Part shown: in pieces, positions 35,763-59,260 of the stretch
How the letters are laid out: each line of letters begins with the position of its first letter
Numbering within the stretch: the first letter of the stretch is position 1
Assembly: GCA_963718895.1 (NCBI GenBank)
Contig: CAVRAG010000007.1
Span: 704,001 to 768,000 of the forward strand
Reading direction: 5' to 3'
Source of the DNA: an uncultured Nitrososphaerota archaeon
Lineage (GTDB): Archaea; Thermoproteota; Nitrososphaeria; Nitrososphaerales; Gagatemarchaeaceae
DNA: 64,000 nt
Translations under genes and position numbers: made by a program
Notes under the pieces: model-generated
What the model was told of the DNA's origin: nothing
The model's database searches: none
The model's input: only the letters and a program-made list of their open reading frames with translations

Positions 35763-35771
35763 ACGGTTCCC

Positions 35772-39049: not shown

Positions 39050-39050
39050 C

Positions 39051-39289: not shown

Positions 39290-39395
39290 GGCCTAACGTA
39301 TGCCATCGACAGTTGTCGAACCAGCGGCCCGCGCGTATCTCCCTCCGGACGGGGTTCTTCGGCGGCTCTTCGAATCGGTTGTCCAAGCGCGCCAC
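39290..39395 (-). pseudogene. HerA N-terminal stub (cassette copy 2)
   Basis: PVRREIRAGRWFD matches RREIRLG of the other HerA copies, at the same position after DUF1294. Confidence 0.55.
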
Positions 39396-39398
39396 TGC

Positions 39399-39709
39399 TC
39401 AGAACGAGACGACCCACGGGAAGAAGTAGAAGGCGAGGAACGCGCCCAGAGCGCCCAGGCTACCCCTACCGGGAACCAGAAGCCGGGCTTCGAGGTCTTG
39501 TGATTGAAGAAGAGCCCCCCGAGCGTTATGCCCGCGAACCCTCCGAGAAGGGCGATGAAGGCGAGGCTCTGTTCGCTCATCCTGTCCAACCCGATCTTGG
39601 CCGCAACCTTGTCGGCGAGCATGGCGCCACCACCGACAAAGGTCATGACGAGGAGCACGTCCTCGAGGACCTGCGGGGAGATCACGGAAGCCAGGTTGGC
39701 GGCAGGCAT
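39399..39709 (-). CDS. DUF1294 membrane protein, copy 2 (late frameshift)
   Basis: ADKVAA..DRMSE..LA.IAL.GG..G...FNHKTSK..FW. Confidence 0.85.
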
Positions 39710-39722
39710 AGGTGTTGACCCC

Positions 39723-39926
39723 CTAGGTGATCTTTGGCACCGGGATGCCGCCCTCGTGCATCTCTATCCGGCACTCGGGGCAGACGAGCTTCTTGAAGAA
39801 CCGGCCCACCTTCTTCTTGGGACAGGTGTCGCAGTAGAGCTTGCGGCAGGACGGGCACTGCCATGCGATCCTCCCGCGGAACCCGCCGACCGCCCTGTTG
39901 CACTGGATACAGTAGCCTCGGACCAA
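39723..39926 (-). CDS. Small multi-CxxC zinc-finger protein, copy 2
   Basis: CIQC, CPSC, CDTC, CPEC; GTTAAAT box about 25 nt upstream. Confidence 0.88.
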   Translation of the reverse strand: MVRGYCIQCNRAVGGFRGRIAWQCPSCRKLYCDTCPKKKVGRFFKKLVCPECRIEMHEGGIPVPKIT

Positions 39927-39978
39927 AGCACCATAGAATTCTGAAGGATGATTTAACCCCCAAGCAACCAGGCGATTG

Positions 39979-40194
39979 TCAGACAGCTTTCAGAAGCTTA
40001 GCCTTCACGTCCGGTTTTGTTTCCCTTGGAAGCAAGAGTTCCAGGTCCAGCAGTTCTCCCTTCGCGTCCTCGTCCAGGATCACGTTCTCCGCGAGCGGCT
40101 CGCTGGAGGACACCTTCCCTCTTCTCAGCCGCAGGTAGAGGGCACCCGCCTCTTCATCAAATTCCAGTGGAGCCATACCTTTTTGCGCCCTCAT
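39979..40194 (-). CDS. DUF2283 family antitoxin
   Basis: FDEEAGALYLRL...ILDED..G.L..LELL. Confidence 0.85.
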   Translation of the reverse strand: MRAQKGMAPLEFDEEAGALYLRLRRGKVSSSEPLAENVILDEDAKGELLDLELLLPRETKPDVKAKLLKAV

Positions 40195-40408
40195 TGTCAG
40201 CTTTCAGAGCCGTTATCACTATTAAGCCTTCATCACTCTCCTCGATGATCACGATGGTGAAGCTGCCATCCAAACGAGACGCGCACGAGGCCTTCCTTCC
40301 CTGCTTTGTGTATCTCGCTTCGAGAGGACGCACGATTGCTTCCCCGACTTCCATCTTGGTTACTCCGCGCTCCAACATCCTCTTCTCGGCGTGAGGGGTG
40401 TACCTCAT
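40157..40408 (-). CDS. DUF4258 family toxin (RelE-like)
   Basis: YTPHAEKRMLERGV...VITA; paired with DUF2283. Confidence 0.85.
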   Translation of the reverse strand: MRYTPHAEKRMLERGVTKMEVGEAIVRPLEARYTKQGRKASCASRLDGSFTIVIIEESDEGLIVITALKADNEGAKRYGSTGI

Positions 40409-40430
40409 CGGTCACAGCTCGAAACCTCAT

Positions 40431-40563
40431 TGGCCCCTAAAACCGTCATTGCAATGAGGAGACGCCCAAAGACGCGCAAATGACTCTCCCGCCCTAAACG
40501 AGAGACGATACACAGGAATTACCTGCGCCGCAAGACATGACCACGAGCGCAGGGGTCCTTCAC
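40431..40563 (+). ncRNA. Dispersed non-coding element, copy A (3' truncated)
   Basis: 39/41 nt match to copy D (40471-40511 vs 59077-59117), then CACAGGAATTACCTG...ACGAGCGCA shared with B/C; TGGCCCCTAAAA box. Confidence 0.55.
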
Positions 40564-40813
40564 TGAACCCACCCCGACACGCCTGTTGCGCTGGGAGCAA
40601 GCCTCTGACCAAACCAAGATGGAATCTTGAGGCGCAATTCAACCGCAAACCGGCGGAGCATCGTGGGACGATCTCTCCACCCTGGTTTGTCAGCGATGAC
40701 GAGAGGTCCCTTGAGCCGGGATACCCACTATCTTCTCTCCGAGTTTGGTCAGGACGAGCACGCCTAGCTCATCATTCGGCTCAGCGCGGTCCTCCGCCGA
40801 ATCGCGCTTTGGC

Positions 40814-41671
40814 TCAGGTCCTCTGCCCGGAAGGAGGCCGCCAGTCGCTGCATCTGGGGCATATCAGGAAGAACTTCGATCCGCTGACGATCTTGAACGA
40901 TGGAGCGCTGCATGTCGGGCATTGGGCCTCTTCCTCCTTCCAGTGCACCTCGAGGCCACGTTCCTTGAGCCAGTCAACGACCGAGAGCACCGTTGGGTCG
41001 GTCAGCATCTCGACGGGTAAGTCTTCGTAGTACTCGACCGCCAGCTTCAGCCTCTCGAACTGGCTCGGAGAGATTTGCCCGTTGAGCGAGTGCCTTGCGA
41101 AGACCGCCGTAAGGCGCTTCCGCTCATCCCCGTCCGCGAGCTTCGTGTCGACGCCGGAGAGCAGGACAATGCACACGAGCGAAACAGCGGCGATGAGCCC
41201 GTAAGGGCTCTGGAGAAACAGTATTGGCAGTCCGACGTAAGGGATGGTGACGGCCGGCACGCCCAGGACGCTGGTCGAGTCTGTGACGAACGGGTCCGGG
41301 GACAGGTTGTTGTCTCCCTTCGTATCGTAGTACGTCACCCCGTTGGCCTCCTGACCGACCCCCACGACCCTGTGGATCACGACAGGCTTCAGGAACGAGT
41401 CGAGGGCCGGAATCCCAGATGAACCCTGAACGAAGACGATGATGCTGCCGTTCGCGATCTGTCCCCGCGGGGCGGTGAAGAAGATGAGCTCACCGTTCTG
41501 GAGCTTGGGGTACATGCTGTTCCCCTGTACGATAGCGACCGGATAGGTGGTCGTCCCGGCGATGAACGGAAGTGCGGCGAGAGTGACAAGTAGGCCGAGA
41601 CTGAGCATGAACAGCAAGCGCCGTTTGTCGAATTTCATTTCCAAAGTCTCCGTTGTGACCATTCTTCTCAT
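40814..41671 (-). CDS. Signal peptidase I (S26, SipW/Sec11-type) with C-terminal zinc-ribbon domain
   Basis: GNSMYP, IHRVV, TKGDNN..PD; C-terminal CPTC/CPRC. Confidence 0.9.
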   Translation of the reverse strand: MRRMVTTETLEMKFDKRRLLFMLSLGLLVTLAALPFIAGTTTYPVAIVQGNSMYPKLQNGELIFFTAPRGQIANGSIIVFVQGSSGIPALDSFLKPVVIHRVVGVGQEANGVTYYDTKGDNNLSPDPFVTDSTSVLGVPAVTIPYVGLPILFLQSPYGLIAAVSLVCIVLLSGVDTKLADGDERKRLTAVFARHSLNGQISPSQFERLKLAVEYYEDLPVEMLTDPTVLSVVDWLKERGLEVHWKEEEAQCPTCSAPSFKIVSGSKFFLICPRCSDWRPPSGQRT

Positions 41672-43617
41672 GCCCTGTATGTATAAGCCACCTCGAACAG
41701 CGTGGGTTTCGGTGAGCCCCAGAAGATTGTTAGAGCTGCCGACGCTGGCCCGGTTATCACGACCTCGATGTAGCCCGAGGCCGGTACTGTCCCAGCAGAA
41801 GAGGACACAGAGAGAGGCTGGTAGAGCGCGGTCGTCGCCGCGGGCGAATTACTGGCCATCGTGGACTGGACTGTGCCGGCCGAGTCCGTCGTGTAGTACG
41901 AGACTGTGACCGTCTGGGGTGCTGGCATTATCGCGTCGCACAGGGCGCCCCAGTACGTCGTAGACTTCCCGAATGCGCACGATGAAGAGGACAAAGAGGA
42001 GGTCGTTGCAACGTACTCTACAGCGTTCGAATAGCCTACTCCCGCCTCGGTGGCGACGAGAGTGGCCTTTGTTACTCCGATGGTTCCAGCCGTCTCCGTG
42101 ACCGATGTATGGGTGCCAAAGAGCGAGAAGACGAAGTCCGTCTCCGAGACCGTCGAGACGCTAGAGACCGTCGGCGCGGCTGAGGTGGAACTGCAGGAGG
42201 AGACTGCGGCGTCCGGCAGACCCGAGGCGGGGTCGAAGGGAGTGATAGTGTCCGCGCCGGAGACCGCGATGGCGATTCCCGAAGCAGCGGTCGTGGTCGG
42301 AGTCGACGCGAGTTGGACCGTTATCGTGTCCGACGAGAGGGCGGAGGACGCTATCCCGTACCACTCGACCTCCGTGCTCTCCTGCGCGCCGGTGCACACC
42401 GTGTAGGAGTGCCGAGCAGACGACTGCCACGTTATCGCGCTGGCAGAGTCTGATATCGAGGAGACCGCGACGGAGGAACCAGAGTGGTAGGTGACTATCG
42501 AGAGCACGACCACATCGTTGGCATCAGTCGTCGTTAACGACGAAAGGGCGAACGAGGTCCCAGAGGACCAAGTCCCTTCTGCGCTTCCATCCACCGCTGG
42601 CGCGGGCATGTCTGCGAAGAGCTGCAACGACAGTGAGGATGCGGGAATAGACTTTGCTGAAGCGAATTGAGGCGACCAGAGATACATGCTCTCCCCCGCG
42701 GGGAGGGTGAAGCTGGCACTTGAGACGACCGCGTCGCAGATGTCGGCCCAATAGGTCGTTGTCTTCCCGAAGGTGCACGTGATGCCGGACTCGACCGTTG
42801 AGACGACGCTGTACTCCACGGCGAGGGAGTATCCCCTTCCCGCTACGGTACTCAGAAGCGTCGCGGCCGTGGCGCCGATGTTCCCGGCGCTCTCCGTCTT
42901 CGACGTGTAACCGCCGAAGAACGCGATTACGAAGTCGTTGGCGTTCGCGGTCGAGATGGTGTCGCTCGGGTCCGCTGCGGTGGACGAGCAGTCGTTCCCT
43001 ATTGTGCCCCCGTTGGCGGAGGTGTCGATCGGGCTGGATGTGGCTGCGCCGGAGATTGCGACGGCCTCGGCCGAGGCAGCGGTGGGAGTCGCGCTGAGTG
43101 TGATGGTTATCGTATCCGAGGAGAGGACGCCGGAGGCTACACCGTACCACTGAATGTCAGTGGTCTCTTGTGTAGAACTGCAGTCAGTGTACTCGGTCAG
43201 GAAACTGGTCCGCCAGCTTACCGCACCGGCGGTGTCTGTGACGGAGGAGACCGTTATCTCGCTGGCCGACTTGTATGTTACCACGTTGAGGAGAATCACG
43301 TCCGACGTATGGGCCGTGGTCACCGACGTTATGGTAAACGAGGTAGCCGAGGACCACGTACCCGTCCAGTTACCGTCCGAGGAGAGCACTGAGGTCCTGG
43401 TGGGCTCGGTGGTCTGAGTGTCGACGGTGAGGCAGGGCAAGGTGCACCCGGCCACAGGTGCGTTGACGTTCTCGTAGTAAGGGTTCAGAAAGGTGCCTGC
43501 GAAGTCGGCGCCGGTGCTCTTCAGAATCGTCACGTTGGCCGCGGCAGCGACAATGAGCATCGTTGTGGCTGCGCCAGACAGAAGGAGCAGCCGCCACTTC
43601 AGGTTCTGCGAACCCAA
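41668..43617 (-). CDS. Secreted S/T-rich protein with two internal Cys-containing repeats (candidate fibre adhesin/minor subunit)
   Basis: Signal peptide; two repeats, each starting GTWSS.TSF and ending CxFGKxTTYW..xCDA. Confidence 0.8.
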   Translation of the reverse strand: MGSQNLKWRLLLLSGAATTMLIVAAAANVTILKSTGADFAGTFLNPYYENVNAPVAGCTLPCLTVDTQTTEPTRTSVLSSDGNWTGTWSSATSFTITSVTTAHTSDVILLNVVTYKSASEITVSSVTDTAGAVSWRTSFLTEYTDCSSTQETTDIQWYGVASGVLSSDTITITLSATPTAASAEAVAISGAATSSPIDTSANGGTIGNDCSSTAADPSDTISTANANDFVIAFFGGYTSKTESAGNIGATAATLLSTVAGRGYSLAVEYSVVSTVESGITCTFGKTTTYWADICDAVVSSASFTLPAGESMYLWSPQFASAKSIPASSLSLQLFADMPAPAVDGSAEGTWSSGTSFALSSLTTTDANDVVVLSIVTYHSGSSVAVSSISDSASAITWQSSARHSYTVCTGAQESTEVEWYGIASSALSSDTITVQLASTPTTTAASGIAIAVSGADTITPFDPASGLPDAAVSSCSSTSAAPTVSSVSTVSETDFVFSLFGTHTSVTETAGTIGVTKATLVATEAGVGYSNAVEYVATTSSLSSSSCAFGKSTTYWGALCDAIMPAPQTVTVSYYTTDSAGTVQSTMASNSPAATTALYQPLSVSSSAGTVPASGYIEVVITGPASAALTIFWGSPKPTLFEVAYTYRA

Positions 43618-43651
43618 CCGATCACCCCTGGGCTCACTTCCCGGCCCGCTC

Positions 43652-44164
43652 CTAGGCGACCGTTATCTGGACCGCCGCGGGGGCCGTCCACGTCACTGCG
43701 CCCGTGTCCCAGAGGACGGTCATCGTCTGTCCGTTCACGATTGAAGCCGGGCTCGTGAACTGGAAGGTGTAGAGGGTGCTCGTGACGCCGCTGACGGCGG
43801 TGCTCGTGACTGTGATTGTGTAGAGGTAGCTCGTCGCCGCGCCCGTCTGGATCGTTATCGTCCAGGCCACTTCCCAGTCGCCCGCCACGAGAGCGTTCAC
43901 GTACGTCGGGGCCAGGTTAGCCCACGCAAGCCCGCTGACCGATGCAGATTGGGGGGCCTCGACGACGTTGTAGCTGATCGCGGAGGCGAGGAAGTAGCCG
44001 TTGTCGACGACGTACTCTCCTTGGTATCCCACGTTGTTGCTGGTGTTGATGGTCACCGATGCCGCGTAAGCGCCTATGGAGCCGACCATGATGAGTGAGA
44101 GAACGAAGAGGTAGACCAGCCTGACGCTCCTGTGCATGAAAGGTACCTTGATGAATCTCGTCAT
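43652..44164 (-). CDS. Secreted 170-aa protein, candidate fibre subunit (paralogue 2)
   Basis: Signal peptide ending GSIGAYA; shares long identical blocks with 44189..44701. Confidence 0.85.
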   Translation of the reverse strand: MTRFIKVPFMHRSVRLVYLFVLSLIMVGSIGAYAASVTINTSNNVGYQGEYVVDNGYFLASAISYNVVEAPQSASVSGLAWANLAPTYVNALVAGDWEVAWTITIQTGAATSYLYTITVTSTAVSGVTSTLYTFQFTSPASIVNGQTMTVLWDTGAVTWTAPAAVQITVA

Positions 44165-44188
44165 CTCCCCAAGACCTCCTCCAAGCTC

Positions 44189-44701
44189 CTAGGCAACCGC
44201 CACTTGAACCGCGGCCGGGGCCGTCCATGTCACAGCTCCCGTGTCCCAGAGAATCGTCATCGTCTGCGTGGGGGTTATCGTCGCGAGGGTCGTGAACTGG
44301 AACTGGTACAACTGAGTGGTCGTTCCAGTGGCTGAAGTGCTGGTCACGGTGATAATGTACGTGTGGCTGGGTGTCGCTCCCGCGTTGAGCGTGATGGTCC
44401 AGAGGACCTCCCAGTCGCCTGGTACAAGGGCGTTCACGTAGGCCGTGCCACTGGGCGCCCATGTCATTGGCTGGGTCGTCAGCGCCTGCGCGCCCTCGAC
44501 GACGTTGTAGGTAATGGCAGAGGCGGTGAAGTAGCCGTTGTCGACGACGTACTCTCCTTGGTATCCCGCGTTGTTGCTAGTGTTGATGGTCACCGATGCC
44601 GCGTAAGCGCCAATCGATCCGATGAGTATGAGCGAAAAGACAGCCACATAGAGCAGCCTTATGCTCCTTCTGACGAAAGGAATCCTTATCATCTTTGCCA
44701 T
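44189..44701 (-). CDS. Secreted 170-aa protein, candidate fibre subunit (paralogue 1)
   Basis: ASVTINTSNNxGYQGEYVVDNGYF...WDTGAVTWTAPAAVQxxVA shared with its neighbour. Confidence 0.85.
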   Translation of the reverse strand: MAKMIRIPFVRRSIRLLYVAVFSLILIGSIGAYAASVTINTSNNAGYQGEYVVDNGYFTASAITYNVVEGAQALTTQPMTWAPSGTAYVNALVPGDWEVLWTITLNAGATPSHTYIITVTSTSATGTTTQLYQFQFTTLATITPTQTMTILWDTGAVTWTAPAAVQVAVA

Positions 44702-44889
44702 GATTCTCTCACTTTCTCCTGATGTTTTTTCTTGTGTTATGAGCAGGGGTTACGATTCCCGTCTGATAACCAGAACAGTTTGGCGGGTGAACCCGATATA
44801 AAGTCGTCTAAAAATATCCCAAAAGTCCACCATGTTATCAATTTCTCTTAACATTTCGTCGTTTGAGCCCGTTCGGTTCGTTAGTCCGC

Positions 44890-45135
44890 ATGGCGTTCAC
44901 TGACCTAACGGACGAGGAGTGGGAGGACGTCAGGGGCCTCATCCGGCCACGAGCCAAGAAAGGCAGACCGAGAGGAGACGAAAGACGAACCCTGAACGCA
45001 ATCCTGTTCGTCCTGCAGGAGAAGATACCCTGGAACTACCTCCCGAGCGAGTACGGCAACGACTCGACCCCCAACAGGAGGTTGAAAGAGTGGGAGGAGG
45101 ACGGGACGTGGGACCGAATAGCGGACGCCCTGGGG
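44890..45135 (+). mobile_element. IS5-family transposase N-terminal (DUF4096) fragment
   Basis: DLTDEEWE..GRPR..R..LNAILFVL...W..LP.EYG..ST...RL.EW...GTW; no DDE domain follows. Confidence 0.8.
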
Positions 45136-45459
45136 CTCGTCGAGGACTCCGACCTCATCGGGGAACCCGGCAGCGGAGACTCGGGTCTCGATTCTGGACT
45201 GTGGGACGTCTCGCAGGACTACCCTGCATCGGGTCGAGGGGAACTCCTCTGTCCGGCTCGACCAAGGATCACCATAGCCCGTGGAGATGCACCCGGAGAG
45301 GCTATCGGCGGCATGACAATCATCAGCTGCACGGAGGCAGACACCTGTCTTCCCATGTTTCACGGACCCGTGGGGGGAACGCGTCAGGAATGCATCCCGG
45401 CGACCTGCTTCTTGTTCGTTGAGGGAGAAGATGGGTTCCCGGGGTGCGCACTCGAAGTT

Positions 45460-45734
45460 CAGCTGGTGAGTTCGACACGCCGCAGGGCTGGACGACCTTC
45501 CCGGCCCTGAACTGGGGTACCGAGGTTCAGGCCCACGGGCCCTCGAATTCGATGAGACCTCAGCTGACAAGCCGGGCCGAGTCCTGGCGCAGCTGGAGAC
45601 AAAGGGGCTTGCGACGGACCCGAGGCATCTTCACAGGATGCACGCACCTGTCCGATGGCTATCCCCTCCTGACCAAGGACCGGAGGCATCTGGACCGGAT
45701 ACCGGACCTCCTCGTCCTCACTCGGCGGACCTAG
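45460..45734 (+). pseudogene. VapC PIN toxin C-terminal remnant
   Basis: GRVLAQLETKG..(fs)IFTGC...GYPLLTKDRRHLDRIPDL matches the PIN C-terminus. Confidence 0.6.
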
Positions 45735-45863
45735 ACTCCGGATGGGGCCTGGCTCGGGGTCTCCCTGTCGACCGTGCCTTCTTTGGGCTCGCCACGCCCC
45801 TTGTTGAGGGCGGCTGACCTAGCAAAGACCGGTCCTCGAGTCTGGACCGAGAGAAGGAAAGGT

Positions 45864-46120
45864 TGGCGGTTAAATTGACTGTCAGCGTGCTTCTACACCC
45901 GATTGCGCGGACATGAGTCTCCTCCTCGAACTGGAGATGAGCACAGGAATTACCTGAGCCGCAAAAACGTGATCGCGAGCGCAAGGGTCTTCCACGGCGA
46001 GGCGGCCAACGGGTCGAAGAGGAAGACATCACGTCCTCTGACTTTCAAGCGAATGCCGTCCCCGTGTATCGGGAGGGCCAACGAGCGAATGTCTCTTGAG
46101 CAGGCGGACGAACAACGAAT
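45864..46120 (+). ncRNA. Dispersed non-coding element, copy B (candidate structured RNA with own promoter)
   Basis: TGGCGGTTAAAT box; stem ACCC-TTGCGC/GCGCAA-GGGT; 103/105 nt identical to copy C. Confidence 0.65.
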
Positions 46121-46369
46121 GGACAGGACCAAGCCTTGTGATTTCGGGGGGCTGAGCGTTTCCAGAAATTCCTGCAAGACTTGCATAGAATAGGACGCTT
46201 ATCCAAGATATGTAACCCAGCGTCCAAGTCCTCTTAGACGGAAATACGGAGCTTTGCAGAGGAGGTTGTGTACTATGTATCACTAACTGGGCGAATATCG
46301 ACCTTGTCGCCCCTATGTGAACGTCCTCGTTATCTACTCTCTTGCGCCGTTGAGGACCGTGGATTGAGG

Positions 46370-46702
46370 ATGACAACGGAAGAAAACCTCCGTGAAGCAA
46401 CGGGACAATCTCCAGAGACCATCATCTGCGCGGGATGCGACGAACCTGTTCAGGAGCTCCTGCAAGAGGATTCCCTGCGTCTGAGGAGGACGAACATGGA
46501 GGAAGTCCTCCCTCCGGTGAGGGCTTTCGAATGCCCCCGATGTGAAGCCATAATCTATTCAGACGAATTCACGTCCGGCAGATTTGTGCCTCCCCAGTTC
46601 AGGCGTCTGATAGTGCCGGTTGCTCGGCCCATGAGCGGGAGCCACTTCTCGCCGCAGACCGAGGTAGCCGTTCTGGGTGCGTCGGAGCCGTCTAGGAGTT
46701 GA
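46370..46702 (+). CDS. Small zinc-ribbon hypothetical protein
   Basis: CAGC...CPRC. Confidence 0.55.
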   Translation: MTTEENLREATGQSPETIICAGCDEPVQELLQEDSLRLRRTNMEEVLPPVRAFECPRCEAIIYSDEFTSGRFVPPQFRRLIVPVARPMSGSHFSPQTEVAVLGASEPSRS

Positions 46703-46742
46703 TGGGAACGAAGAGAATCGGTGCGGTCCGGAAGGACGCCTC

Positions 46743-47701: not shown

Positions 47702-47991
47702 GGACCGTGGGAACGAAAGTATCGGGATTTAGGAAGGAGGTACACTAAGTAGTACCTAGGCGACGAAGATGAGTGTTTTGTCCACCTAGGCAACGGGAGC
47801 GACAGCCTCGTGCATGATTAACAGGGCCGTTAGCAGCTTGCCAGGGCTGTTGTTTCATCAACCAGAGGCCTCGGTGGATGGGACTTCGGGGAGGGGACAC
47901 AGAATCTCGCCCGTGTGGCTGGCTCACCAAGAGAAACCTCCAGGAGGTTCACGTCGCTCATGGTCGTGTCTGTGAATCCTGCGGTATCGAG

Positions 47992-48256
47992 TGGCGCTTA
48001 AAAATCGCCTTACAGGCTTCGAGGACACCTGATTGCGCGAAGATGAGTCTCCGGCCTTGAACTGGAGATGAGCACAGGAATTACCTGAGCCGCAAAAACG
48101 TGGTCACGAGCGCAAGGGTCTTCCACGGCGAGGCGGCCAACGGGTCGAAGAGGAAGACATCACGTTCTTTGACATTCCAGCGAACGCCGTCGTGGTGAAA
48201 TCCCGGGAGGACGAACAAGCGCATGTCTGCCTAGACATGCAGACAAACTAGCGAAG
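47992..48256 (+). ncRNA. Dispersed non-coding element, copy C
   Basis: TGGCGCTTAAAA box; TTGCGC/GCGCAA, TCTCCGG/CTGGAGA, CAGG/CCTG and GTCTTCC/GGAAGAC stems. Confidence 0.65.
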
Positions 48257-48654
48257 AAGATCAGTCACAGCACACCGAAATCAGGAACCGCTCGGCAGGG
48301 CATCCTATCTTCTGGTAGGGCGCCTCATGATATCCACCGGCCATCCGATTCGGGAAGTGCCAGCCGACGCCTGAGGCGGATCTTGAGCTGAAGCTTCGCT
48401 TCCAGGCTGTCACGATTCAGCTGGTAGAGGAGCCCCCGGACGACCTGTGGCTATCGCGATGCCAGATTCTCCAGCCTTTGAAGGACAGGGTGCAGCCTTC
48501 CCTTGAGCTTGATCGAGCTCGCTTTCTCCGCACTTTGCTGTCACCTATCGCGGCAAAGACTTGTCAGACTTGAGGAGGACCCGGGTTGCCGACAATCTCC
48601 AAACTGCGCTGGGAGGCAATGTTAAAGACACCAGTTTCTCCACACCCAATCAGA

Positions 48655-49443
48655 ATGATTGTCCCGAACAGGTTCAAGGACACCGTGGTGCTGATTACGG
48701 GTGCGGGGTCAGGGATAGGTCGCGGAATAGCCTCCAGGTTCGCTGCGGAGGGAGCAAGCGTTGTACTCGTGGATATCCGGGAAGAGGCCGCAAACGCCGT
48801 CTTGAGTGAGATACAGTCGCGAGGCGGCATCGGCATGGTCATCAAAGCGAACGCCACGTTGCCGAGCGACGTTAACCGCGCGGTGGAGGCAGTGATTGAA
48901 AGGTTCGGAAGGATAGACGTACTCGTGAACAACGTGGGTCTGTTCGTACTGAAACCAATCATGGAGATGTCAGACGCAGACTGGGAGCCGATGATGGACA
49001 TCAATGCAAAATCCACCTTCCTGTGGTCCAAGACCGCGGCCAAATCGATGAAAGAGGCCAAGCATGGCTGCATTGTCAACATCGCCTCAGGGTCCGGCAA
49101 AGTTGGGGACCCATATTCTGGCGTCTACGTGGCGGCGAAGCACGCCGTCATCGGGCTCACGAAGAACCTTGCGCTGGAGCTGGCACCATTTGGCGTACGG
49201 GTCAACGCTGTATGCCCGGTCGACACAGACACGCCAATGCAGAAGAAGTTCTTGGAACAGCTCGGCGCGAGGGTCGGCAAGTCGCCGGACGAGCTGAGAC
49301 AAGAGACGATGCACAACATACCACTGGGCAGGCTGGCGACCCCAGAAGACATCGCGGGAACGGTTACATTTCTTGCGTCTGACGACGCGAACTACATAAC
49401 GGGACAGTCGATCAACGTCAACGGCGGATGGCTGATGCTCTAG
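48655..49443 (+). CDS. SDR family oxidoreductase
   Basis: TGAGSGIG, LVNNVG, YVAAK, NAVCP. Confidence 0.92.
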   Translation: MIVPNRFKDTVVLITGAGSGIGRGIASRFAAEGASVVLVDIREEAANAVLSEIQSRGGIGMVIKANATLPSDVNRAVEAVIERFGRIDVLVNNVGLFVLKPIMEMSDADWEPMMDINAKSTFLWSKTAAKSMKEAKHGCIVNIASGSGKVGDPYSGVYVAAKHAVIGLTKNLALELAPFGVRVNAVCPVDTDTPMQKKFLEQLGARVGKSPDELRQETMHNIPLGRLATPEDIAGTVTFLASDDANYITGQSINVNGGWLML

Positions 49444-50583
49444 CAGCGGCGCCGGCCAGCGCCGAGGTCAGCCGCTCGATGATGACTGAGACGTCCACCT
49501 CACTGAGACACTGCGGGTTGATGAAGATCGCTCTTCCGATAGAGTAGAGTTTGATGGGCGGGTCGCCGCTCTCGAGTACTCGAACTAGCTCCTCGACGGG
49601 GACGGAATACGGATCCTGTTCGACCTTGATTCGGGGGATGGTCAGCGGTCTTATCGTGTCTTCCGGGCCCGGCATTACCCTCTTCACGTTCAGGTGCGGC
49701 AGCTTTGACAGGCCGTCCACGAGAGAGTCGATGATCCTCTCGCATCTCTCCAGCCTCTCCTTGCTTCTCGCAGGATAGGTTCTCAGGGCGACGATCAGGG
49801 CCGCGATGTCCTCCTTGCTCGTCTTCATCGGCCGCCCAAGGAAATACGTGCGTTGCCCGTTGACGGTCGCGGAGTAGTACGGTCCAAGAGAGAAGCACGC
49901 GTCCACCAGGCTCTTCCTGCCGCAGACGAACCCCGTGTCACTCGGACCTCCAATGTCCTTCCCCCCGCTGAATACCACCAGGTCTGAACCCAGCGAGATG
50001 TACCGCCGGAGGTTCTCCGCCGGAGGGAGCTCGGCGGCCGCATCTACTATGACCGGTACGCCGCGAGAGTGCGCAAGTTCGATGACCCGGTTCAGCGGCA
50101 CCACGGATTGTTGAGGGCCGAAGTCGATGTACAGGATTGCCGCCGTATCAGTCCCTATCGCCGCTTGCAGCTCTTCCTCGGTCGTTCCTTGGGGACTTCC
50201 CACATAGACTGTCCGGCCTCCCGCAATCTTGACGAGCGTGGTGTAGACGCTCCTGTGCGGCGCCTGGACCAAGACTCGCAACGTAGGCCTTCGTTTTCCG
50301 GCAGCATGCTGGCAACCTCGAGGTCCCCCCTGGAGATACAGGCGACGACCGACATCATCAGGCCGGCGGCCGCGCCCGAGACGACGTATGCGGATTCCGC
50401 GCCTGTGATCCCGGCTATGACTTCACCTGCCTTCCTCTGGAGCTCATCCATGAATACGAATGACAGGGCGGCTTCCCTCATCGCCTGCGTCACTTCTGGG
50501 TCGAGCGTGTTGCCACCCAACGACGTCAGAGTTCCGGAGCCGTTGATGACCTTCCTCACTCCCAGCTTCTCGTAGACGTCCAT
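49418..50583 (-). CDS. SelA-like PLP enzyme (DgaE/UPF0425-like), frameshift near 50280
   Basis: VINGSGTLTSLGG, VSGAAAG, VDAAAE, FSGGKDIGGP, GRPMK. Confidence 0.85.
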
Positions 50584-50672
50584 TGTCCTGTCCCGCCGGT
50601 CAACATCGATACTTATGCCTGTTTCGACGGGCGGGCTCCTGCACTTATAATGAGAGCTGTGCGCTCCTCCGC

Positions 50673-51480
50673 ATGGGAATCTCGAAGAAGGTAGCCCTCG
50701 TCACGGGGGCGGCGTCCGGGATTGGTGAAGGAATAGCTCTCCATCTCGCAAGAGAGGGCGCCTCGGTCATAGTGGCAGACGTGGACGAGGTCAAGGGCGA
50801 GAGAGTCGCCGCACGAATCTCGAAGGGGAAGGGCGATGCCGTCTTCATCAGAGTGGATGTCTCCAATCAGGGTGAGGTCAAGGCGGCGCTTGCGAAGTGC
50901 AGGAAGAAGTTCGGCGGCCTCGACATCCTCGTAAACAACGCCGGCATCAACGTGGGCTTGAGCAGCGGTCCGAATCCTACAGGGTGCCCGAAGAGATATG
51001 GATCGTACCATCGATACCAACCTGAAGGGAACGTTCCTCTGCACAAAGTATTCTGTGCCGCTCATGAGGAAGAGGCAAGGCGGGTCGATAATCAACATAT
51101 CTTCGATGCTGGGGCTCTACGCCATCCCAGGGGCGTCCTCTACTGCGCCTCCAAGGGAGGATCATATCGCTCACGCGGGCGACAGCCATGGACTCCGCGA
51201 GGTTCAAGATAAGGGCAAACTGCATCTGCCCTGGTGCGATCAAGACGCCGGCCTTCGGAAGGGCGTTCACCGACCCCACCGAGCTGCGCCGTCTCTTTGC
51301 GATCTATGAGAAAGGGTATCCGGCCAAGCGCATAGGGGAACCAAAGGACATCGCGTCTTTGGTGGCCTATCTGGCGGATGAGGCCTCCTCGTTCATCACT
51401 GGGTCCGTCATAACAATCGACGGCGGCATGCACGCCCAGTACGGCGAAGCGCTGCTGAAGATGAGGATTGACGGGATAAT
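50673..51480 (+). CDS. SDR family oxidoreductase (frameshifted, end approximate)
   Basis: TGAASGIG, NNAG, YCASKG, NCICPG, ITGSVITIDGG across three frames. Confidence 0.85.
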
Positions 51481-52553
51481 CTATCGCTCTCGCTGCCCGG
51501 ATGGAGCCACTTGTACTTGTACTCCTGACCGCTCATCGAGGATTTCTGCACTAGGAGGCCGAGGAGCTCAACGAGGTTGGCGTGCTGCGTCATGGGCACG
51601 TCGTCCGCTCCCGGGTCGAGCAGGCCGGGACCGCCGTTTATGGCACCCGCCGCGGCGCAGTAGGCCTGCGTCTGCAACTCAATCTGTCTGTCGTGCAAGA
51701 CCGCGGGTTTCTGCAGCAGCGCCGAAAGGCAGGCCTCTATGCCGTAGGCGCCCCAGTTCGAGATCGTCGCGGTGACCAGCACCTCCGTCGCGATGTTGGA
51801 GGCCGAGCCTCCCTGGCAAGGGCACTTGCACTCCCCCGAGAACGGGACGTACTTCAGGACCGAGTCTCTTATGAGACCACAACCTAGCTCGTTCCCCCCA
51901 TCCCCTATCCCGATAGTCAGCGTGCCCTGAGCCGTAGCCGAGAGAAACATGCTGTCGGGTTTGGCGAGGTACTTTGAGATGTTTATCCCAGTCAGCCCGT
52001 GATATTCGCCCTTGACGTTCTGCGACGGTCTCTCAATCGCAATGAGCGCGGAGGGGTTGAGTTCCTTAAGCATTCGTTCCCCGGCGGCGGCCGCCTGGTT
52101 GGATTCCGTAGTGAATTCGACGATAGATGCGAGTCTCGGAAGCCTCAGCACCTCGTCTATAGAGCCCACGTTCAGACCCGAGCCAGCGAGTGCGGCCTTG
52201 GTTATCCCCACGTTGAAAGAATCCGTCACAAGCACCACCTTGGCGTCCAGCCCGAGTACCAGGGCGCGCGCAAGGGTCGCTGCGCCGACGGGGCCATCCT
52301 GCTCTCCGACGGTGAACCACGGCGGACAGGCGAACCCAGTCGTGATTATCACCACATCATTCGCCTTGACACATTGCGCCAGCCGTTGGGCCGCGAGCAT
52401 CGTAATCGGAAAGTTACCCTGCTTCTCCCTCGCCGCACCATAGAGTTTGTCGATAACGCCGCGGCACGAGATGTCCGCTGTGATCAGTCGATCGACGGTA
52501 TTGCCCAGCACCTGGTGGTGTTGCGACACGGAGTGGGAATCGCTTTGGTCCAT
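51408..52553 (-). CDS. D-glutamate cyclase family protein (DUF4392)
   Basis: TTGF, EQDGPVGA, IERP, IGDGGNELGCG, SNWGAY. Confidence 0.88.
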   Translation of the reverse strand: MDQSDSHSVSQHHQVLGNTVDRLITADISCRGVIDKLYGAAREKQGNFPITMLAAQRLAQCVKANDVVIITTGFACPPWFTVGEQDGPVGAATLARALVLGLDAKVVLVTDSFNVGITKAALAGSGLNVGSIDEVLRLPRLASIVEFTTESNQAAAAGERMLKELNPSALIAIERPSQNVKGEYHGLTGINISKYLAKPDSMFLSATAQGTLTIGIGDGGNELGCGLIRDSVLKYVPFSGECKCPCQGGSASNIATEVLVTATISNWGAYGIEACLSALLQKPAVLHDRQIELQTQAYCAAAGAINGGPGLLDPGADDVPMTQHANLVELLGLLVQKSSMSGQEYKYKWLHPGSESDRLSRQSSSSAALRRTGRACRRRLL

Positions 52554-52621
52554 CTTGATCTCCACCTCACGGCCTCTTCCATCTCGCAACATCAACCTTT
52601 GGTCCGAGGTCGAGTGCCCTT

Positions 52622-54530: not shown

Positions 54531-54759
54531 ACGGCCTGGACTTTGGCCATTGTGTCTTAAGTCTTTCGAGAAAGCAGTCTGCGAAGCACTTTCGACAGGG
54601 TCATAATCACGAAATCGGCAGCCAAGAAACCTTGGATGCTCACTTAGTCTAGGCTTGCGGGGACCCAGAGGACCTCAACTTCAGGGTCGTTCCGTTTGGA
54701 GCGGAGACCGGTTCGGGACATCAAATGATGACGCATTGAGGCTCCAGACTCCTCGACGG

Positions 54760-56269
54760 TCAATCACGGGCTGCGGATACGACGGCGATCTTCTCTCCGA
54801 GCTTCGTGAGAACGAGAAGGCTCCCCGACATCTCAGCTATTGCAAAGCTACCATGTACCATCTGCTTCAACCGTTTGTTGGAGTAACCCTGCTGGGAGAG
54901 CCTCTTCCTCGGGACCTTGCCTCCTGAATTGTGGATGAGCTTGGCCGTGTCCCTAGCCCAGGCCGGCAATTTGTCGTAGACCTTCCAGGCCGAATCACCG
55001 TCAGGAACCCCTTCCAGTGAGATTGGAGGTGTTTTCGGACTCCCTACTATTGGGTGATTCTGATTTGGCAGATTTTGCGTCGGGGCGAATAGGAAACTGT
55101 GCTCCGGGAGGCCCACCATGCACCCCACCGGAATGTCAGTACTGGCGTCGTTGAGCTGGACCAGGCACTCTCCCACCTCCAGCTTGCGAAGGTCTGATGC
55201 GAACTTGTCCGCCTCCAACCTGCTCACCATGTAGTTCAGCGCGAGGTCGACGTCCTTGCCGCTGGTCATCGAGTGGCAGACTATGGTGTTCGAGTTGGAG
55301 ATGATGTCCTCGCTGACTTGTGTCGGCCGCGTTGCCATGACGACCAGCCCCATCCCGTACTTCCTCAGCTCGGTGGCGTACCTCTCGAGGATCCCCTCGT
55401 AGTCTCGCCTGGCGGGAGCAATGTGGTGCGCCTCGTCGACCATGAGCACGAACCTGAGCGCCTTGGTCCACCCGAGCCTCTTGCCGCGGGTGATGAGGAG
55501 CTTGCAGAGGACCTGGGAGACCATGTTCCTCGCCTCGTCGGACTCCAGCGGGCCGAGGTTGACGATGCGCAGGCCCGGCGCGAAGAGCTCGGACTCGTCC
55601 AGCGGTGGCGCGTCGGTGTCGAAGACCCGCGCCAGGGAGCCGCTCGCCAGCGGCCTGAGCCGGGAGACCACAGCCTCGTTCCCCTCGAGCCAGCCCTTGA
55701 CCTTGGTCCGGGACTCCTCGCCCTGCGCCCTGAGCTCCGAGAGGACATCGGAGAGCCGGGAGGTGTCGGCCCCGTAGCAAGACTTCAGGGCCTCGCCGAG
55801 GGCGCGCTCCTGGTACGGGGTGAAGGTGATGCCCCTGAAGGAGCTGCCGACGTAGTGGTGCATCAGGGATATGGCGCGCTCGACGTCGTCGTCGCTGTTG
55901 TCGGACCTGCGGGCGAACGGGGAGAGCGTGAGGTTGGTCCCGGGCGTGTAGACGGTCGCGCTCGGGAGAGAGGCTAGTGGTGAATGGGCGAACTCGCCGG
56001 TCCGGTCGAGGACGAGGACCGAGATGCCGTTCATCGCGGTCGAGCTCCCTGGCAATCACCATGCCCGTACCGCTCTTGCCGCTGCCGGTCCTGCCGAAGA
56101 TGCACATGTGGCGGGTGAGGCTGTCGACGGGGATGGTAACCGGGGGTCTCTCCGGCGATTGCCCGCGTTGAAGACCGTAGGTGGATGCGTCTCCTGGCGC
56201 GTCGACGCGACAACCGAGGCGGATCTCACGTCTCCCGGCGGGCGGCGATTGCTGATTCTGAAGGGGCAT
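54760..56269 (-). CDS. HerA/VirB4-like (DUF87) ATPase, cassette copy 3 (1-nt insertion near 56041)
   Basis: HMCIFGRTGSGKS, VLDRTGE, VDEAH, ELRKYG; C-terminal winged-helix-like tail. Confidence 0.88.
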
Positions 56270-56285
56270 GGAGACTGGCTCACTC

Positions 56286-56603
56286 TCAGAGGTTCACGAC
56301 ACCGGGGAAGAAGTAGAGCACGAGGAACGTGAGCCAGAGCAGGCCCGATGCGCATATCGTGACCCAGAAGTATGCCTTGGTGGTCTTGTGGTGGAAGAAG
56401 AGCCCGCCGAGTATCACGCCTGCGACCCCGCCGGCGAGGGCGATGTGCGCGAGGCTGCGCTCGCTTATCCTGTCGAACCCGATTCGGGCGGAAGTCTTGT
56501 CGGCGAGCATGGCGGCTCCGCCGAGTAGGCTCCAGACCAGGAACCACTCACCGAGAAGCCGCTCGGGGATCATGGAAGCGAGGTTGACGGGGAGCATTGC
56601 CAT
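56286..56603 (-). CDS. DUF1294 membrane protein, copy 3 (intact)
   Basis: ADKTSA..DRISE..LA.IAL.GG..G...FHHKTTK..FW. Confidence 0.88.
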   Translation of the reverse strand: MAMLPVNLASMIPERLLGEWFLVWSLLGGAAMLADKTSARIGFDRISERSLAHIALAGGVAGVILGGLFFHHKTTKAYFWVTICASGLLWLTFLVLYFFPGVVNL

Positions 56604-56607
56604 CGCC

Positions 56608-56811
56608 CTAGGCGGTCTTGGGGACCGGGATGCCGCCTTCGTGCATCTCTATCCGGCACTCGGGACAGACGAGCTTCTTGAATAAGCGCCCCACCTTCTT
56701 CTTAGGGCAGGTGTCGCAGTAGAGCTTCCGGCAGCTAGGACACTGCCAAGCGATCCTCCCGCGAAACCCGCCGACCTCCTTGTTGCACTGGATGCAGAAT
56801 CCTCGGACTAA
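56608..56811 (-). CDS. Small multi-CxxC zinc-finger protein, copy 3 (start codon reads TTA, so missing from the ORF track)
   Basis: VRGFCIQCNKEVGGFRGRIAWQCPSCRKLYCDTCPKKKVGRLFKKLVCPECRIEMHEGG; same length and promoter box as copy 2. Confidence 0.8.
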   Translation of the reverse strand, partial: LVRGFCIQCNKEVGGFRGRIAWQCPSCRKLYCDTCPKKKVGRLFKKLVCPECRIEMHEGGIPVPKTA

Positions 56812-56862
56812 AGTGCCCTATGATCAGGAACAAAGATTTAACGACCAAGGACACCTTCGAGA

Positions 56863-58921
56863 TTACGCTTGAGAAGAACTTGCAACTCCCTTTTCGACAA
56901 CACTCAGGGGAGGAAAGGCTCTACTCAAGAGGGGTCCTATTGACTTGTCCAAGGTTCGGGGGTTGGTTTCAAGGAATTTGGTGATGAATGCATGAGCAAT
57001 CAACGGCTTCTTTTCAACACCCTCCCTTCCCTTTATGTACTCGGAAACATCCTTGTATAGGGAACTGTCGAGTTTTTGGATAAAATCCTCCAAATTCTTG
57101 GAGAAGAAGAACACTTGATTGGTCAAATCGTCTATTCCATCATTTCTTACAATGGAGTAGGATTCGCCATCGTCAGAGTACTTGGCAGCGAGCTTTTCTT
57201 AGCGTGTTATCATCATGGTTGTCTCCATCGGCCAAAATCGTAAATGGAATGCCAATGTTGTTTAGAACCCGAGAGTACTTCCCGAAGTTGCCGTTGCTTC
57301 CTACATCTACTATGATGTTCTCTCTCTTGTCAATCTCCATGTCATAGTGCCTCGCCGCAATGTCCAGGAATTCCCGATCGGCCTCTCCCTCGCACATGAC
57401 TATCCTGTTCGCGAAGAATACTCTTGTGTCGATTTGGTATGATAGCTTGTACCGATCCTCGTCTTCAAAATGGAGAGCAGCATTCAGTTGGGTAGCGATA
57501 CTCTTCGCACCGGTTCTTCTAACGTAGAAGAGATTCGCGTTGAAGTCGAATATCAGATTGTGAACCAACTTGGGAGAGTGCGTTGCCACAATAATCTGGC
57601 TCTTCGTTGCAACTAACTTATCCATTAGAGCCTTCATCTGTGGAGGATGGAGATTGACAGCGGGCTCGTCCAGCAATATCACAGAATCTTCTACCCCGAT
57701 CGCCGCGGCCAAGAGAAAAAGCGATTCTGCCAAACCTGCTCCAACACGGTCCAGCTCGAATTGCTTCGAATTCGTTGAATCAGTTACAATGATGTATGTG
57801 TGGTGTGGAACCTGAGGTATGTTTCGTTGTTGAAAGTTTTCTTGACCGAGACTCACGTATCTGGGCAGTACATCGAAACTCAAGGAAGGGAATAGATCCT
57901 GGAAAGATTCCCTTATTGCGCGAAATCTCTTCCTCTGCTCAAGAATGTTGGACTCTTTCAGGCTAAACAGAAACTGGCCAAGATTCCACCCGTCAGCTTC
58001 GAGTCGATTTGTGTACTGTAGAGGTTCGTCTGCCGAGGCTGCCTGAGTGGCAACTGGTGTTTGGGCCACATGGTCAGCTTCGACTGTTGCCTTGCCGAAT
58101 ATCGTGCCTCCGCTTGTGAATATTATCTTGTTCCGCAGAATTGAACCGAGAATTGAAGAGAACGTAATCTGGGAGTTCTGACTTGGCGGAAATCCAGCTG
58201 AAATCAAGACTTGCTGGAACATCCTTCGATGATCCTCCGAGGCATTTGTCAAATATTGATCCTGAATGTCTTGGATTGTAAAGTAGGTCGAATCCTCGAC
58301 AAAGACTTTGTGTGAAGCGGCTTGGGGATCTGCGGACAGACTGATGCCATCCAGGAGACCTGCAAGATTGCTTTCGGGTTGCTTACCTTTGAACCCATTC
58401 TGCATCGAATCTCGAACATCATCCACCACATAGATCGTCCCCGTCCCATTGGGAGCGTGGAATCGTACGCCTAAGTCTATCAGTTCGAGTTCAAACACAT
58501 TATCCCGAGTAGTTGGAAAGTAGCCCAAGGGCCAACCCAGTGTGAGCCGAGCCCTTCTGCAAAGCTCGACGAGACGGTCGAAATTCTTGTAGTCGTAAAC
58601 ATAGGTCCTTTCCCCTGCGGCATCTCTTACTCGATAGACTCTGAGGAAGTCGAGCAGAGTCTTGGCCTCACTATTTGAGAACACCAACTCGGCTGAGAGC
58701 ACTGGAGGCTTGTTCGAGAATACTTCGTCCTCTGACGGCCTCTTGGAGGACGGAGGGAGGCTCTCCGCGAAGAGACGGACTATTCGGAGGAGATTTGACT
58801 TCCCGGAGTTGTTTGGTCCGACAATCACGTTTGACTTGCTAAGCGAGAGGCGTGTGGGCGGCTGCGAGTCGCCATCATACGAGTAAAGGCCTTGCACGGT
58901 CAATTCCTTGAGCTCCACCAT
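56863..58921 (-). CDS. OLD-family ATP-dependent endonuclease (ABC ATPase + TOPRIM), frameshift near 57180
   Basis: GPNNSGKS, LLDEPAVNLHP, ATHSP, CEGEAD, ADGD; visibly more AT-rich than flanks. Confidence 0.88.
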
Positions 58922-59036
58922 GGATTTTACCTCAATTGATTAGAGAATATCGCTTCTCTTAAGGTCTAGTCGATTAGTCTTGGAATGCATCAAGAAGACA
59001 ATCCCGAACAGGCCGGATGCTTCTAGCAAATGCCAT

Positions 59037-59260
59037 TGGTGCTTAAATGCGCTACCAAACTGAGTTTTCACCCTACGACACGCAAATGACTCTCCCGCCC
59101 TAAACCAGAGACGATACGTGGAGTTGCCTGCGCTGGAAGAACGCAGTCTGAGTGTCGAGGGTTGCTCCGCGGAAGGCGAGCCAACAGGTCCGAAGAGGAA
59201 GACTTCACCACGGATCTTTGACTTTCCAGCGAATGCCGTACCGTTAACCAGAGAGGGCTC
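59037..59260 (+). ncRNA. Dispersed non-coding element, copy D (divergent)
   Basis: TGGTGCTTAAAT box; stem ACCCT-CGACAC/GTGTCG-AGGGT at the same 76-nt spacing as TTGCGC/GCGCAA in B; shared GAAGAGGAAGAC and TGACTTTC.AGCGAATGCCGT. Confidence 0.6.

Follow-up and report, generated by a model that had tools for sequence, protein, structure and literature searches.

The defence-gene hotspots of P2 and P4 lie between conserved genes of these mobile elements, and that of P2 holds the old gene. The lariat-capping (GIR1) ribozyme is located just upstream of the open reading frame (ORF) of the homing endonuclease I-DirI, a His-Cys box enzyme, and segB of T4 is a free-standing homing endonuclease gene in a tRNA gene cluster. 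HerA ATPases occur in pairs with a nuclease or effector, as in HerA-NurA, Sir2-HerA and DUF4297-HerA. The locus described here lies in a 64-kb stretch of DNA from a soil Nitrososphaerota archaeon (G000:C7:704001-768000, hereafter the window; the assembly consists of 3.13 Mb in 11 contigs with 59.7% guanine plus cytosine, GC) and contains several copies of a non-coding element that we describe as a candidate structured RNA. The reading that we favour, at a probability of roughly 0.55, is that this promoter-bearing RNA forms the middle of an accessory module with an insertion-tolerant spacer. The full module would consist of a HerA/DUF1294/Zn-ribbon cassette, the RNA, and a LAGLIDADG endonuclease gene (c5) followed by a small ORF (c6), because the RNA runs into the LAGLIDADG gene. 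An original prediction, made from the sequence of the window, had placed the element at the edge of integrated mobile units that carry defence genes.

The genome contains five copies of the RNA, all on one strand and within 31 kb. Copies A to D are in the window and copy E lies 7.5 kb past its end; the copies are 73-94% alike. They were scored with a covariance model (R1) built from 15 copies. Copy C (47983-48270, + strand; R1 match 48023-48172, 166.5 bits, E 1.6e-35) contains helices P1-P6 and is closest to the family consensus. Copy B (45853-46140, + strand; R1 match 45893-46041, 156.4 bits) is full length including the 3' domain, is 94% identical to copy C over 137 nucleotides (nt; repeat D8), and is followed on the same strand by an ORF for a Zn-ribbon protein of 144 amino acids (aa). 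Copy A (40428-40720, + strand; R1 match 40460-40609, 105.9 bits, E 7.7e-22) has a box resembling a B recognition element (BRE) and TATA box at ~40432-40445, and its 3' half departs from the family. In copy D (59034-59300, + strand; R1 match 59066-59217, 108.7 bits) compensatory changes keep helices P2-P4. The likeness of A and D and their equivalent positions, each pointing away from its cargo genes, had been remarked upon before and are borne out: 40428-40511 and 59034-59117 are 75% identical over 84 nt (repeat family D13) and have in common an exact 25-mer (at 40475 and 59081), two matches of which appeared in 0 of 100 shuffles. Both copies are on the + strand, immediately upstream of and divergent from minus-strand genes.

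A G-rich BRE and a TTAAAT box are conserved ~25 nt ahead of the start of conservation in the family, and the sequence 5' of the box is unrelated among copies. The structure was laid out and tested on 23 full-length copies representing two subtypes. It consists of six helices: a 5' hairpin (P1), a long arm in three parts (P2-P4) and two 3' hairpins (P5 and P6). In this arrangement 87.2% of cells are paired, compared with 41-49% when partners are slid by 1-3 columns; the covariation score is 0.265 (at most 0.104 with partners slid), and 84 cells are changed on both sides (8-32 with partners slid). The observed helix values were reached by none of 500 shuffles. The strand of the RNA is fixed because its abundant G-U pairs fit the given strand only. 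Judged from these alignments, the element is predicted to encode a structured RNA ~240 nt long and to be equipped with an archaeal promoter of its own, and it represents an RNA family of soil archaea that is absent from Rfam.

In Rfam 15, no family reaches its gathering score anywhere in the window, and chance-level matches occur only at copy C and at the locus of copy E and c5. A weak match to an archaeal C/D box model (48036-48091, 16.5 bits, E 0.71), together with AUGA and UGA motifs on either side of helix P1, might indicate a C/D box guide small RNA (sRNA) in the 5' part of the element. This is scarcely credible, and the candidate was rejected: the score compares with a gathering score of 45, the supposed D box is not conserved, with CUGC in its place in the genus-g4 type and in copies A and D, the supposed guide is base-paired with covariation and compensatory changes, and the RNA is ~4 times the length of a C/D box sRNA. 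A group I intron or GIR1-like ribozyme was also rejected; Intron_gpI gives no match at E up to 10 across the RNA, c5 and c6, and the RNA has its own TATA box. The same holds for an integron, as no integrase was found on the contig and the repeat is a promoter-bearing RNA gene of ~240 nt rather than an attC site. A second copy in genome G007 was considered as a hybrid of A (5') and B (3'), a sign of recombination within the RNA had it held, and rejected, since its TATA box is absent and it groups with a different subtype.

In total 59 copies of the RNA were found, of which 27 come from genomes of the family and 32 from contigs of soil metagenomes. The public runs that share words with the DNA of the window are soil and peat metagenomes. 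The 27 R1 matches in genomes are spread over 12 of 97 genomes of the family. Leaving G000 aside, the genomes with matches belong to genera g1 (6 of 22), g4 (2 of 3), g2 (1 of 6), g6 (1 of 3) and g8 (1 of 1), and no R1 match was obtained in g9 (0 of 55), g3 (0 of 3) or g5, g7 and g10 (0 of 1 each). In the metagenomes, a 21-nt pattern matched 64 stretches, half of which (32) scored as the RNA at E <=0.001. Neighbouring genes were counted for 54 strong copies (22 genomic and 32 metagenomic), leaving out five weak matches of 30-37 bits (L036 2443, L103 4972, L095 2380, L103 8693 and L104 2565). Among the 54, upstream sequence is shorter than 400 nt in 10 and downstream sequence shorter than 700 nt in eight. 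At a peptidase M20 locus (L035, L098, L110, L115, L124 and L155) the RNA ends early, after ~110 nt, and a remnant of ~30 aa of the 3' end of HerA is present on the opposite strand at +95 to +229 from the RNA start. At a locus in G007 (L027 15250-17049) an RNA copy is separated by 1.7 kb from the gene for a group II intron reverse transcriptase that has maturase and HNH domains, and the neighbours of this gene are a HerA fragment and an ORF with a Fic domain.

A Zn-ribbon gene lies divergently upstream of the RNA in 17 of the 54 strong copies, which upholds the expectation that element and cassette are linked above chance. In 11 of these the gap between the two is 128-139 nt, and the two promoters stand back to back; these are empty sites of the kind that the original prediction proposed to look for. 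In five others the gap is 534-2255 nt with other genes in between, comprising four distinct fillings. The gap of 2434 nt at L095_76 belongs to a Zn-ribbon gene that goes with a weaker neighbouring RNA copy. At one peptidase M20 locus the site is filled in L110 and L155 and empty in L115 and L124, with 86-95% identity on both sides of the insert. A slot between RNA and Zn-ribbon gene exists, because empty and filled forms occur at this one orthologous locus, and it is variable as had been proposed, with unrelated genes at different loci. Conservation extends to both flanks, namely the promoter of the RNA and, opposite it, the Zn-ribbon gene with its promoter; it is seen in A, D, G007, L110 and the empty loci. 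In A, D and L110 the junction on the RNA side falls no more than ~50 nt ahead of the BRE/TATA box, and the position of the Zn-side junction varies between A/D and L110. With conserved flanks, and with unrelated genes and empty sites at the same position, the slot is by comparative sequence evidence a hotspot in a small and partly redundant sample.

The spacing also bears on whether the neighbours belong together at all. Under one explanation, the RNA is a trans-acting small RNA without any tie to the cassette, and A and D are alike only because part of a decaying island was duplicated, unrelated DNA having entered the island later. It is true that A and D are paralogues within one genome, that many solo copies retain promoter and structure, and that the island is rich in fragments and insertion sequence (IS) remnants. 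However, two genera and many metagenome contigs show the divergent arrangement at 128-139 nt, although the chromosomal contexts differ, and loci in which the RNA is not detected still have c5 next to the HerA cassette, which makes a chance association quite improbable.

The filling at copy A (39979-40408, - strand) consists of a DUF4258 ORF (40157-40408) and a DUF2283 ORF (39979-40194) that overlap by 38 nt. Both were named in the original prediction, and both exceed the curated Pfam cut-offs (28.0 bits against 25 for DUF4258, 36.2 bits against 23 for DUF2283); neither PADLOC nor NCBIfam gives a match for the pair. From its family matches it looks like a toxin-antitoxin pair, and DUF4258/DUF2283 is a combination that we take to be such a system; a literature search returned no paper combining the two families. 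The filling at copy D (56863-58921, - strand) consists of ORFs of 582 aa and 87 aa that were identified before as an OLD-family nuclease. This identification stands with both Pfam (AAA_21 1.5e-19, OLD-like_TOPRIM 2e-13) and PADLOC (Old 1.4e-26), and by these matches the predicted protein is an OLD-family member with an ABC-type ATPase and a C-terminal TOPRIM domain. The 87-aa ORF (56863-57126) is probably the C-terminus of OLD, split off by a one-base assembly error at ~57194, because a public contig is one base shorter at that position. No GajB-like partner was seen beside the gene. The description of this cargo as AT-rich is accurate (45-51% GC compared with 59.7% for the genome), but the low GC is not confined to it and extends from 56.85 kb to ~70 kb, past element D.

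The remaining fillings are less telling with respect to defence. In G007 the slot contains a 470-aa ORF with a C-terminal Rx4H motif, for which there is a weak HEPN_Apea lead only (score 0.90, 15% of cluster members). In L110 and L155 a 1092-bp insert carries a 138-aa membrane ORF without a match in family searches. The proposal that the slot carries defence cargo is therefore only partly supported, by a family match for OLD and, in Pfam only, for the toxin-antitoxin-like pair.

These fillings are also central to the explanation put forward originally, in which A and D mark a pair of related mobile units that became integrated, each with a hypervariable defence slot between a Zn-finger gene and the RNA, the latter serving as recombination site or boundary. 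Several observations agree with it. There is homology on both sides of the cargo, four distinct fillings occur besides empty sites, OLD and a toxin-antitoxin-like pair are typical island cargo, and the pair of RNA and Zn-ribbon gene is present in at least four chromosomal contexts (peptidase M20, phosphoenolpyruvate carboxylase, c5 and the present island). One public contig of low depth, moreover, joins A (40510) to C (48073), skipping 7562 nt at 15 shared letters. This joint is a weak hint of recombination between copies, but as it comes from a single low-depth contig it could also be an assembly collapse across the repeat. No recognisable mobile carrier was found: contig C7 has no tyrosine integrase (all four Phage_integrase matches in the genome are on contigs C8 and C4), and no att-like repeats, direct repeats or target-site duplications were seen at the junctions. 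Insertion does not appear to be site-specific, because the Zn-side junction differs between A/D and L110. Finally, the RNA continues into c5, which places it inside the unit and not at its edge. Integrated mobile units thus seem somewhat unlikely, and the role of the RNA as a boundary or recombination site is not sustained; its suggested function as an antitoxin found no support. The slot is best read as a putative insertion-tolerant spacer with bidirectional promoters inside a larger RNA-centred module.

The first side of the proposed module is the cassette beyond the slot. Past the cargo, the identity between 39398-39964 and 56285-56849 amounts to 72-85% (repeats D1, D2 and D19), and the shared stretch contains genes for a Zn-ribbon protein of 67 aa and for a DUF1294 protein. 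The Zn-ribbon gene at A (39723-39926, - strand) specifies four CxxC pairs, has weak Pfam Zn-finger matches only, and is leaderless, with a TTG start 26 nt past a TTAAAT box. The copy at D (56611-56811, - strand) is an open frame 91% identical to it, with TTA where copy A and the third copy have the TTG start. The DUF1294 membrane protein at A (39398-39709, - strand; PF06961 8.5e-13; repeats D1 and D19; tblastn) has a frameshift near 39445 that moves its last ~15 codons to another frame, and that at D (56286-56603, - strand; 105 aa; Pfam 1.1e-14) is intact.

The third member is found at D, where an FtsK/HerA-superfamily ATPase is encoded at 54760-56269 (- strand; DUF87; PADLOC HerA 7.4e-14) with one frameshift near 56030-56040. 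It is 48% identical to an intact 497-aa homologue in L035, which contains DUF87 (2.7e-16) and HerA_C. Among NCBIfam models the best named match of the cassette ATPase is CedD (8.2e-29), followed by HerA (2.9e-17); the CedD score is 100.6 bits compared with an equivalog cut-off of 600. By these profile matches, the ATPase is a predicted member of the HerA/FtsK superfamily and falls short of CedD orthology. At A, the place expected for HerA is occupied by unrelated ORFs of 114 aa and 511 aa (37514-39395, - strand), which have no match in Pfam, PADLOC or NCBIfam and no homologue in related loci. The claim that the same cassette follows the cargo in both places thus holds for the Zn-ribbon and DUF1294 genes but not for HerA, which is present at D only.

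A third, partial cassette is located at 35130-35972 (- strand; repeats D3, D6, D11, D15 and D18), with a Zn-ribbon gene (35772-35972), a frameshifted DUF1294 gene (35471-35746) and an N-terminal HerA fragment (35130-35306) that abuts a luciferase-like gene. The genome as a whole contains five RNA copies, four of which stand solo, three Zn/DUF1294 copies and several HerA pieces. PADLOC gives no match for the Zn-ribbon, DUF1294, c5, c6, 114-aa, 511-aa or 261-aa ORFs, nor for slot ORFs other than OLD. A search for related loci returned two with DUF1294 and three with c5. Between the third Zn-ribbon copy and the DUF1294 gene at A (36014-39395) there are a 112-aa ORF (in G013 also near the RNA), a radical SAM protein with a weak PADLOC candidate match (PDC-M41B 1.9e-4), and the 511-aa and 114-aa ORFs; this region may be a third cargo block without adjacent RNA. 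Upstream of copy E (L037 1043-3667, window +65.0 to +67.7 kb) an 874-aa HerA-like protein (PADLOC mad8 2.7e-16) is encoded next to a 281-aa partner, and Hsp70 fragments and a GrpE gene lie between it and copy E.

The second side of the proposed module is downstream of the RNA. There c5 (400-450 aa) is present on the same strand in 13 of the 54 strong copies, followed in eight of the 13 by the small ORF c6. Zn-ribbon gene and c5 are both beside the RNA in four of 54, all of them metagenomic copies, and DUF1294, RNA and c5 occur together in two genomes. The c5 protein contains motifs GYxGD and WDAEGS, and residues D186 and E281 are invariant in 32 homologues. In an AlphaFold2 model (mean predicted local distance difference test score 88.7) the C-terminal 240 residues match PI-PfuI, I-Tsp061I and I-DmoI in Foldseek with probability 1.00; a sequence search of the PDB with c5 gave nothing useful. 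Because of these motifs and fold matches, c5, whose only copy in this genome is outside the window, is by structural modelling a predicted LAGLIDADG homing endonuclease, free-standing and double-motif, with an extra helical N-terminal domain. At all eight loci that were read, the 90 nt ahead of the c5 start contain no TATA-like box, and a GGAG-like site is present 5-8 nt before the start codon. Because of this combination, c5 is probably translated from a transcript that starts at the RNA promoter.

In seven loci c5 occurs without the RNA (R1 with filters off, best E 0.11). In three genomes among these HerA is divergent at a distance of 573 nt, and in G003 Zn/DUF1294 is divergent at 2.3 kb. 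Because the ATPase cassette and the endonuclease are neighbours with or without the RNA, their gene order suggests that the two are functionally connected, and the RNA may be the leader that one lineage uses. A second conserved non-coding stretch of ~350 nt is located upstream of c5 in L172 (G003:C55, ~4430-5050) and in three genus-g9 genomes (L175-L177). R1 does not match this stretch in any of the four, and it could represent a separate leader RNA or a strongly diverged one. In L029 (G001:C28, 300-4267) the RNA is followed by a 64-aa N-terminal piece of c5, a Schlafen-group-3 helicase (894-2771), and c5 from residue 30. This arrangement suggests an insertion with partial duplication between RNA and c5, and a second variable site.

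The features of c5 raise the possibility that the RNA gene is its homing target or landing pad, and that cutting and copy repair drag flanking genes along, giving mosaic surroundings and multiple RNA copies. The protein has both catalytic acidic residues and the fold of a homing endonuclease, it is always at a fixed place just 3' of the RNA, alignments of c5-bearing and c5-less copies stop right after helix P6, the contexts of the copies are mosaic, and in one relative the Schlafen-type helicase gene separates a duplicated 5' piece of c5 from c5 itself. This explanation invokes an enzyme with no known cleavage site, however, it leaves the slot on the other side of the RNA unaccounted for, and it has to accommodate c5 genes without RNA and a genome with five RNA copies but one c5. 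We consider homing to the RNA gene unlikely as the cause of the arrangement.

In the RNA-centred accessory module that we favour, one side would be a divergent leaderless operon of Zn-ribbon protein, DUF1294 membrane protein and FtsK/HerA-type ATPase, for which CedD is the nearest named family. In the complete form the RNA would run directly into c5 and then c6, and at c5 it would most likely act as a long structured 5' leader that regulates c5 expression, or be processed out of a transcript that it shares with c5. The spacer of 130 nt that separates the divergent promoters would tolerate insertion, so that unrelated genes could have landed in it repeatedly. In the present genome the module would have been multiplied and broken up across a variable island of 50 kb upstream of the gene for elongation factor 2 (EF-2), and A and D would be paralogous units of RNA, slot, Zn-ribbon and DUF1294 genes with different fillings.

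A number of points weigh against this interpretation. Within the available sequence, 37 of the 54 copies have no Zn-ribbon gene and 41 have no c5. When R1 was run with filters off over 29 Zn-ribbon loci it found only two copies, both already known, and most Zn-ribbon homologues in the family are without the RNA; the linkage of element and cassette is thus conserved beyond this genome but far from general. To these must be added the RNA-less c5 loci described above. A convergent gene faces about half of the 22 genome copies (A, D, L027, L030, L097, L098, L035 and L099), and a leader role is impossible for these. The loci are not all independent: A and D are paralogues, and identical RNA sequences are found in L098 and L115, in L099, L113 and L144, in L111, L148 and L164, and in L131 and L170. 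The structure was derived in part from the sequences on which it was tested. There are only four distinct cargos, of which two (OLD and the toxin-antitoxin-like pair) match a defence or addiction family.

The variable island extends from ~34 kb to EF-2 at ~82 kb, and the five RNA copies divide it into segments that differ in content and GC. Only copy E keeps c5. In relatives a single RNA copy is found 1.8-10 kb upstream of EF-2, with a changing set of genes in between that includes a Schlafen-type helicase, a MazG-like protein, c5 and c6. This fits an EF-2-proximal RNA site that is vertically inherited together with a variable stretch. The segment directly upstream of EF-2 (C7:780000-786000, window +76 to +82 kb, L037 12000-18000) has a GC content of 42-49% and holds fragments of an MmeI/Eco57I-like restriction-modification gene and of an ATPase_2 gene. 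In a survey of integrated elements in Thaumarchaeota, casposons reportedly lie at the 3' end of ef-2; the island described here is on the 5' side of the gene.

The public DNA runs used for comparison consist of low-depth contigs that leave parts of the window uncovered. Set against the window, they show nine one-base indels in 20 kb (including those at 48230, 51487, 52562, 53347, 53472, 57194, 58972 and 59119), which are probably assembly errors. The EF-2 gene just past the end of the window is split into several ORFs in this genome and whole in four relatives; a short-chain dehydrogenase and an aminotransferase (48586-51775) are, like EF-2, ordinary genes broken into adjacent ORFs. Because the essential EF-2 gene is split, and because of the nine one-base indels, frameshifts in this region are not readable as signs of pseudogenes and may be assembly errors. 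The 64-kb window contains no tRNA or tmRNA. Other features of the window include tandem paralogous 170-aa ORFs (43652-44164 and 44189-44701, 80-83% nucleotide identity), which adjoin a 649-aa ORF and a signal-peptidase-like ORF; no firm family match was obtained for any of these. An IS4/5-type DUF4096 ORF is located at 44863-45510. Past copy D, a large ORF (60153-61730, and 59714-60169) contains three internal repeats of ~654 nt (D4, D7, D9 and D10) with no Pfam match, and is followed by kinase/FHA and PP2C genes.

What is new here is above all the RNA family, with a LAGLIDADG nuclease and an FtsK/HerA ATPase as its partners. Very little has been described of structured RNAs or of defence islands in soil Nitrososphaerota that do not oxidise ammonia, and the family is well enough supported to be suitable for submission to Rfam. 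The association of FtsK/HerA-type ATPase, structured RNA and LAGLIDADG nuclease is a conserved partnership for which no described counterpart is known; a literature search returned no paper combining DUF1294 and HerA. In excerpts of a survey of integrated elements in Thaumarchaeota (PMC6563490), HerA is treated only as a viral packaging ATPase and casposons are placed at the ef-2 gene; a term search of the survey found no mention of LAGLIDADG or DUF1294. The slot is a small natural site with empty and filled alleles, and could be used to seek new archaeal defence genes by their position. A bolder conception would make the RNA, a membrane-tethered CedD/HerA-like DNA pump (with Zn-ribbon and DUF1294 proteins) and the LAGLIDADG nuclease a single new RNA-containing system, for defence against incoming DNA or for DNA exchange and homing, in which the RNA is a subunit or sensor and the promoter spacer a dedicated site for capture and co-expression of defence genes. 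As it stands this is speculative and distinctly unlikely; if the RNA does work with the nuclease or the ATPase, it would represent a new kind of RNA-protein system.

Compared with described systems, the locus shows partial likeness to several. It shares with genomic islands at tRNA or tmRNA genes the position of a variable region next to a small RNA gene, and the division of that region into segments by copies of the RNA. However, what the copies retain is the promoter and 5' part and not a 3' att fragment; their similarity is 73-94%, short of identity, their helices covary, and there is no integrase. The cassette recalls pairs of HerA and nuclease in having a HerA-type ATPase gene beside a nuclease gene and in matching the PADLOC HerA models, but here the ATPase is partnered by a LAGLIDADG enzyme, whose divergent transcript would begin with a structured RNA, and PADLOC gives no match for c5 or for the small proteins. 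CedD, the VirD4-like FtsK-HerA ATPase of Ced DNA import, is the best NCBIfam match, and a gene for a small membrane protein adjoins the ATPase here; the score of 100.6 bits against a cut-off of 600, and the lack of visible CedA, CedA1, CedA2 or CedB genes nearby, set the locus apart from the Ced system. According to excerpts of one study, some CedD orthologues have no transmembrane domain and may bind the membrane via partner proteins (PMC11823120).

The c5 side can be compared with two arrangements of homing endonucleases. As with GIR1 and I-DirI, a structured RNA of ~200 nt is directly 5' of a homing endonuclease ORF, here with a predicted common transcript; unlike there, the enzyme is of the LAGLIDADG type, an intron context is lacking, the RNA is preceded by a promoter of its own, and no sequence or Rfam match was found. 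The locus resembles T4 segB in the position of an endonuclease gene beside a conserved RNA gene in mosaic surroundings, but enzyme family and host are different and homing is hypothetical here. The slot, for its part, differs from the hotspots of P2 and P4 in its archaeal host, in having an RNA gene as one flank and a spacer with bidirectional promoters, and in the absence of a phage, satellite or integrase, with a cargo that is recognisably defensive in part only. With these differences, it resembles them in consisting of a fixed intergenic site with conserved flanks that contains unrelated genes, including an OLD nuclease, and that occurs in both empty and filled forms.

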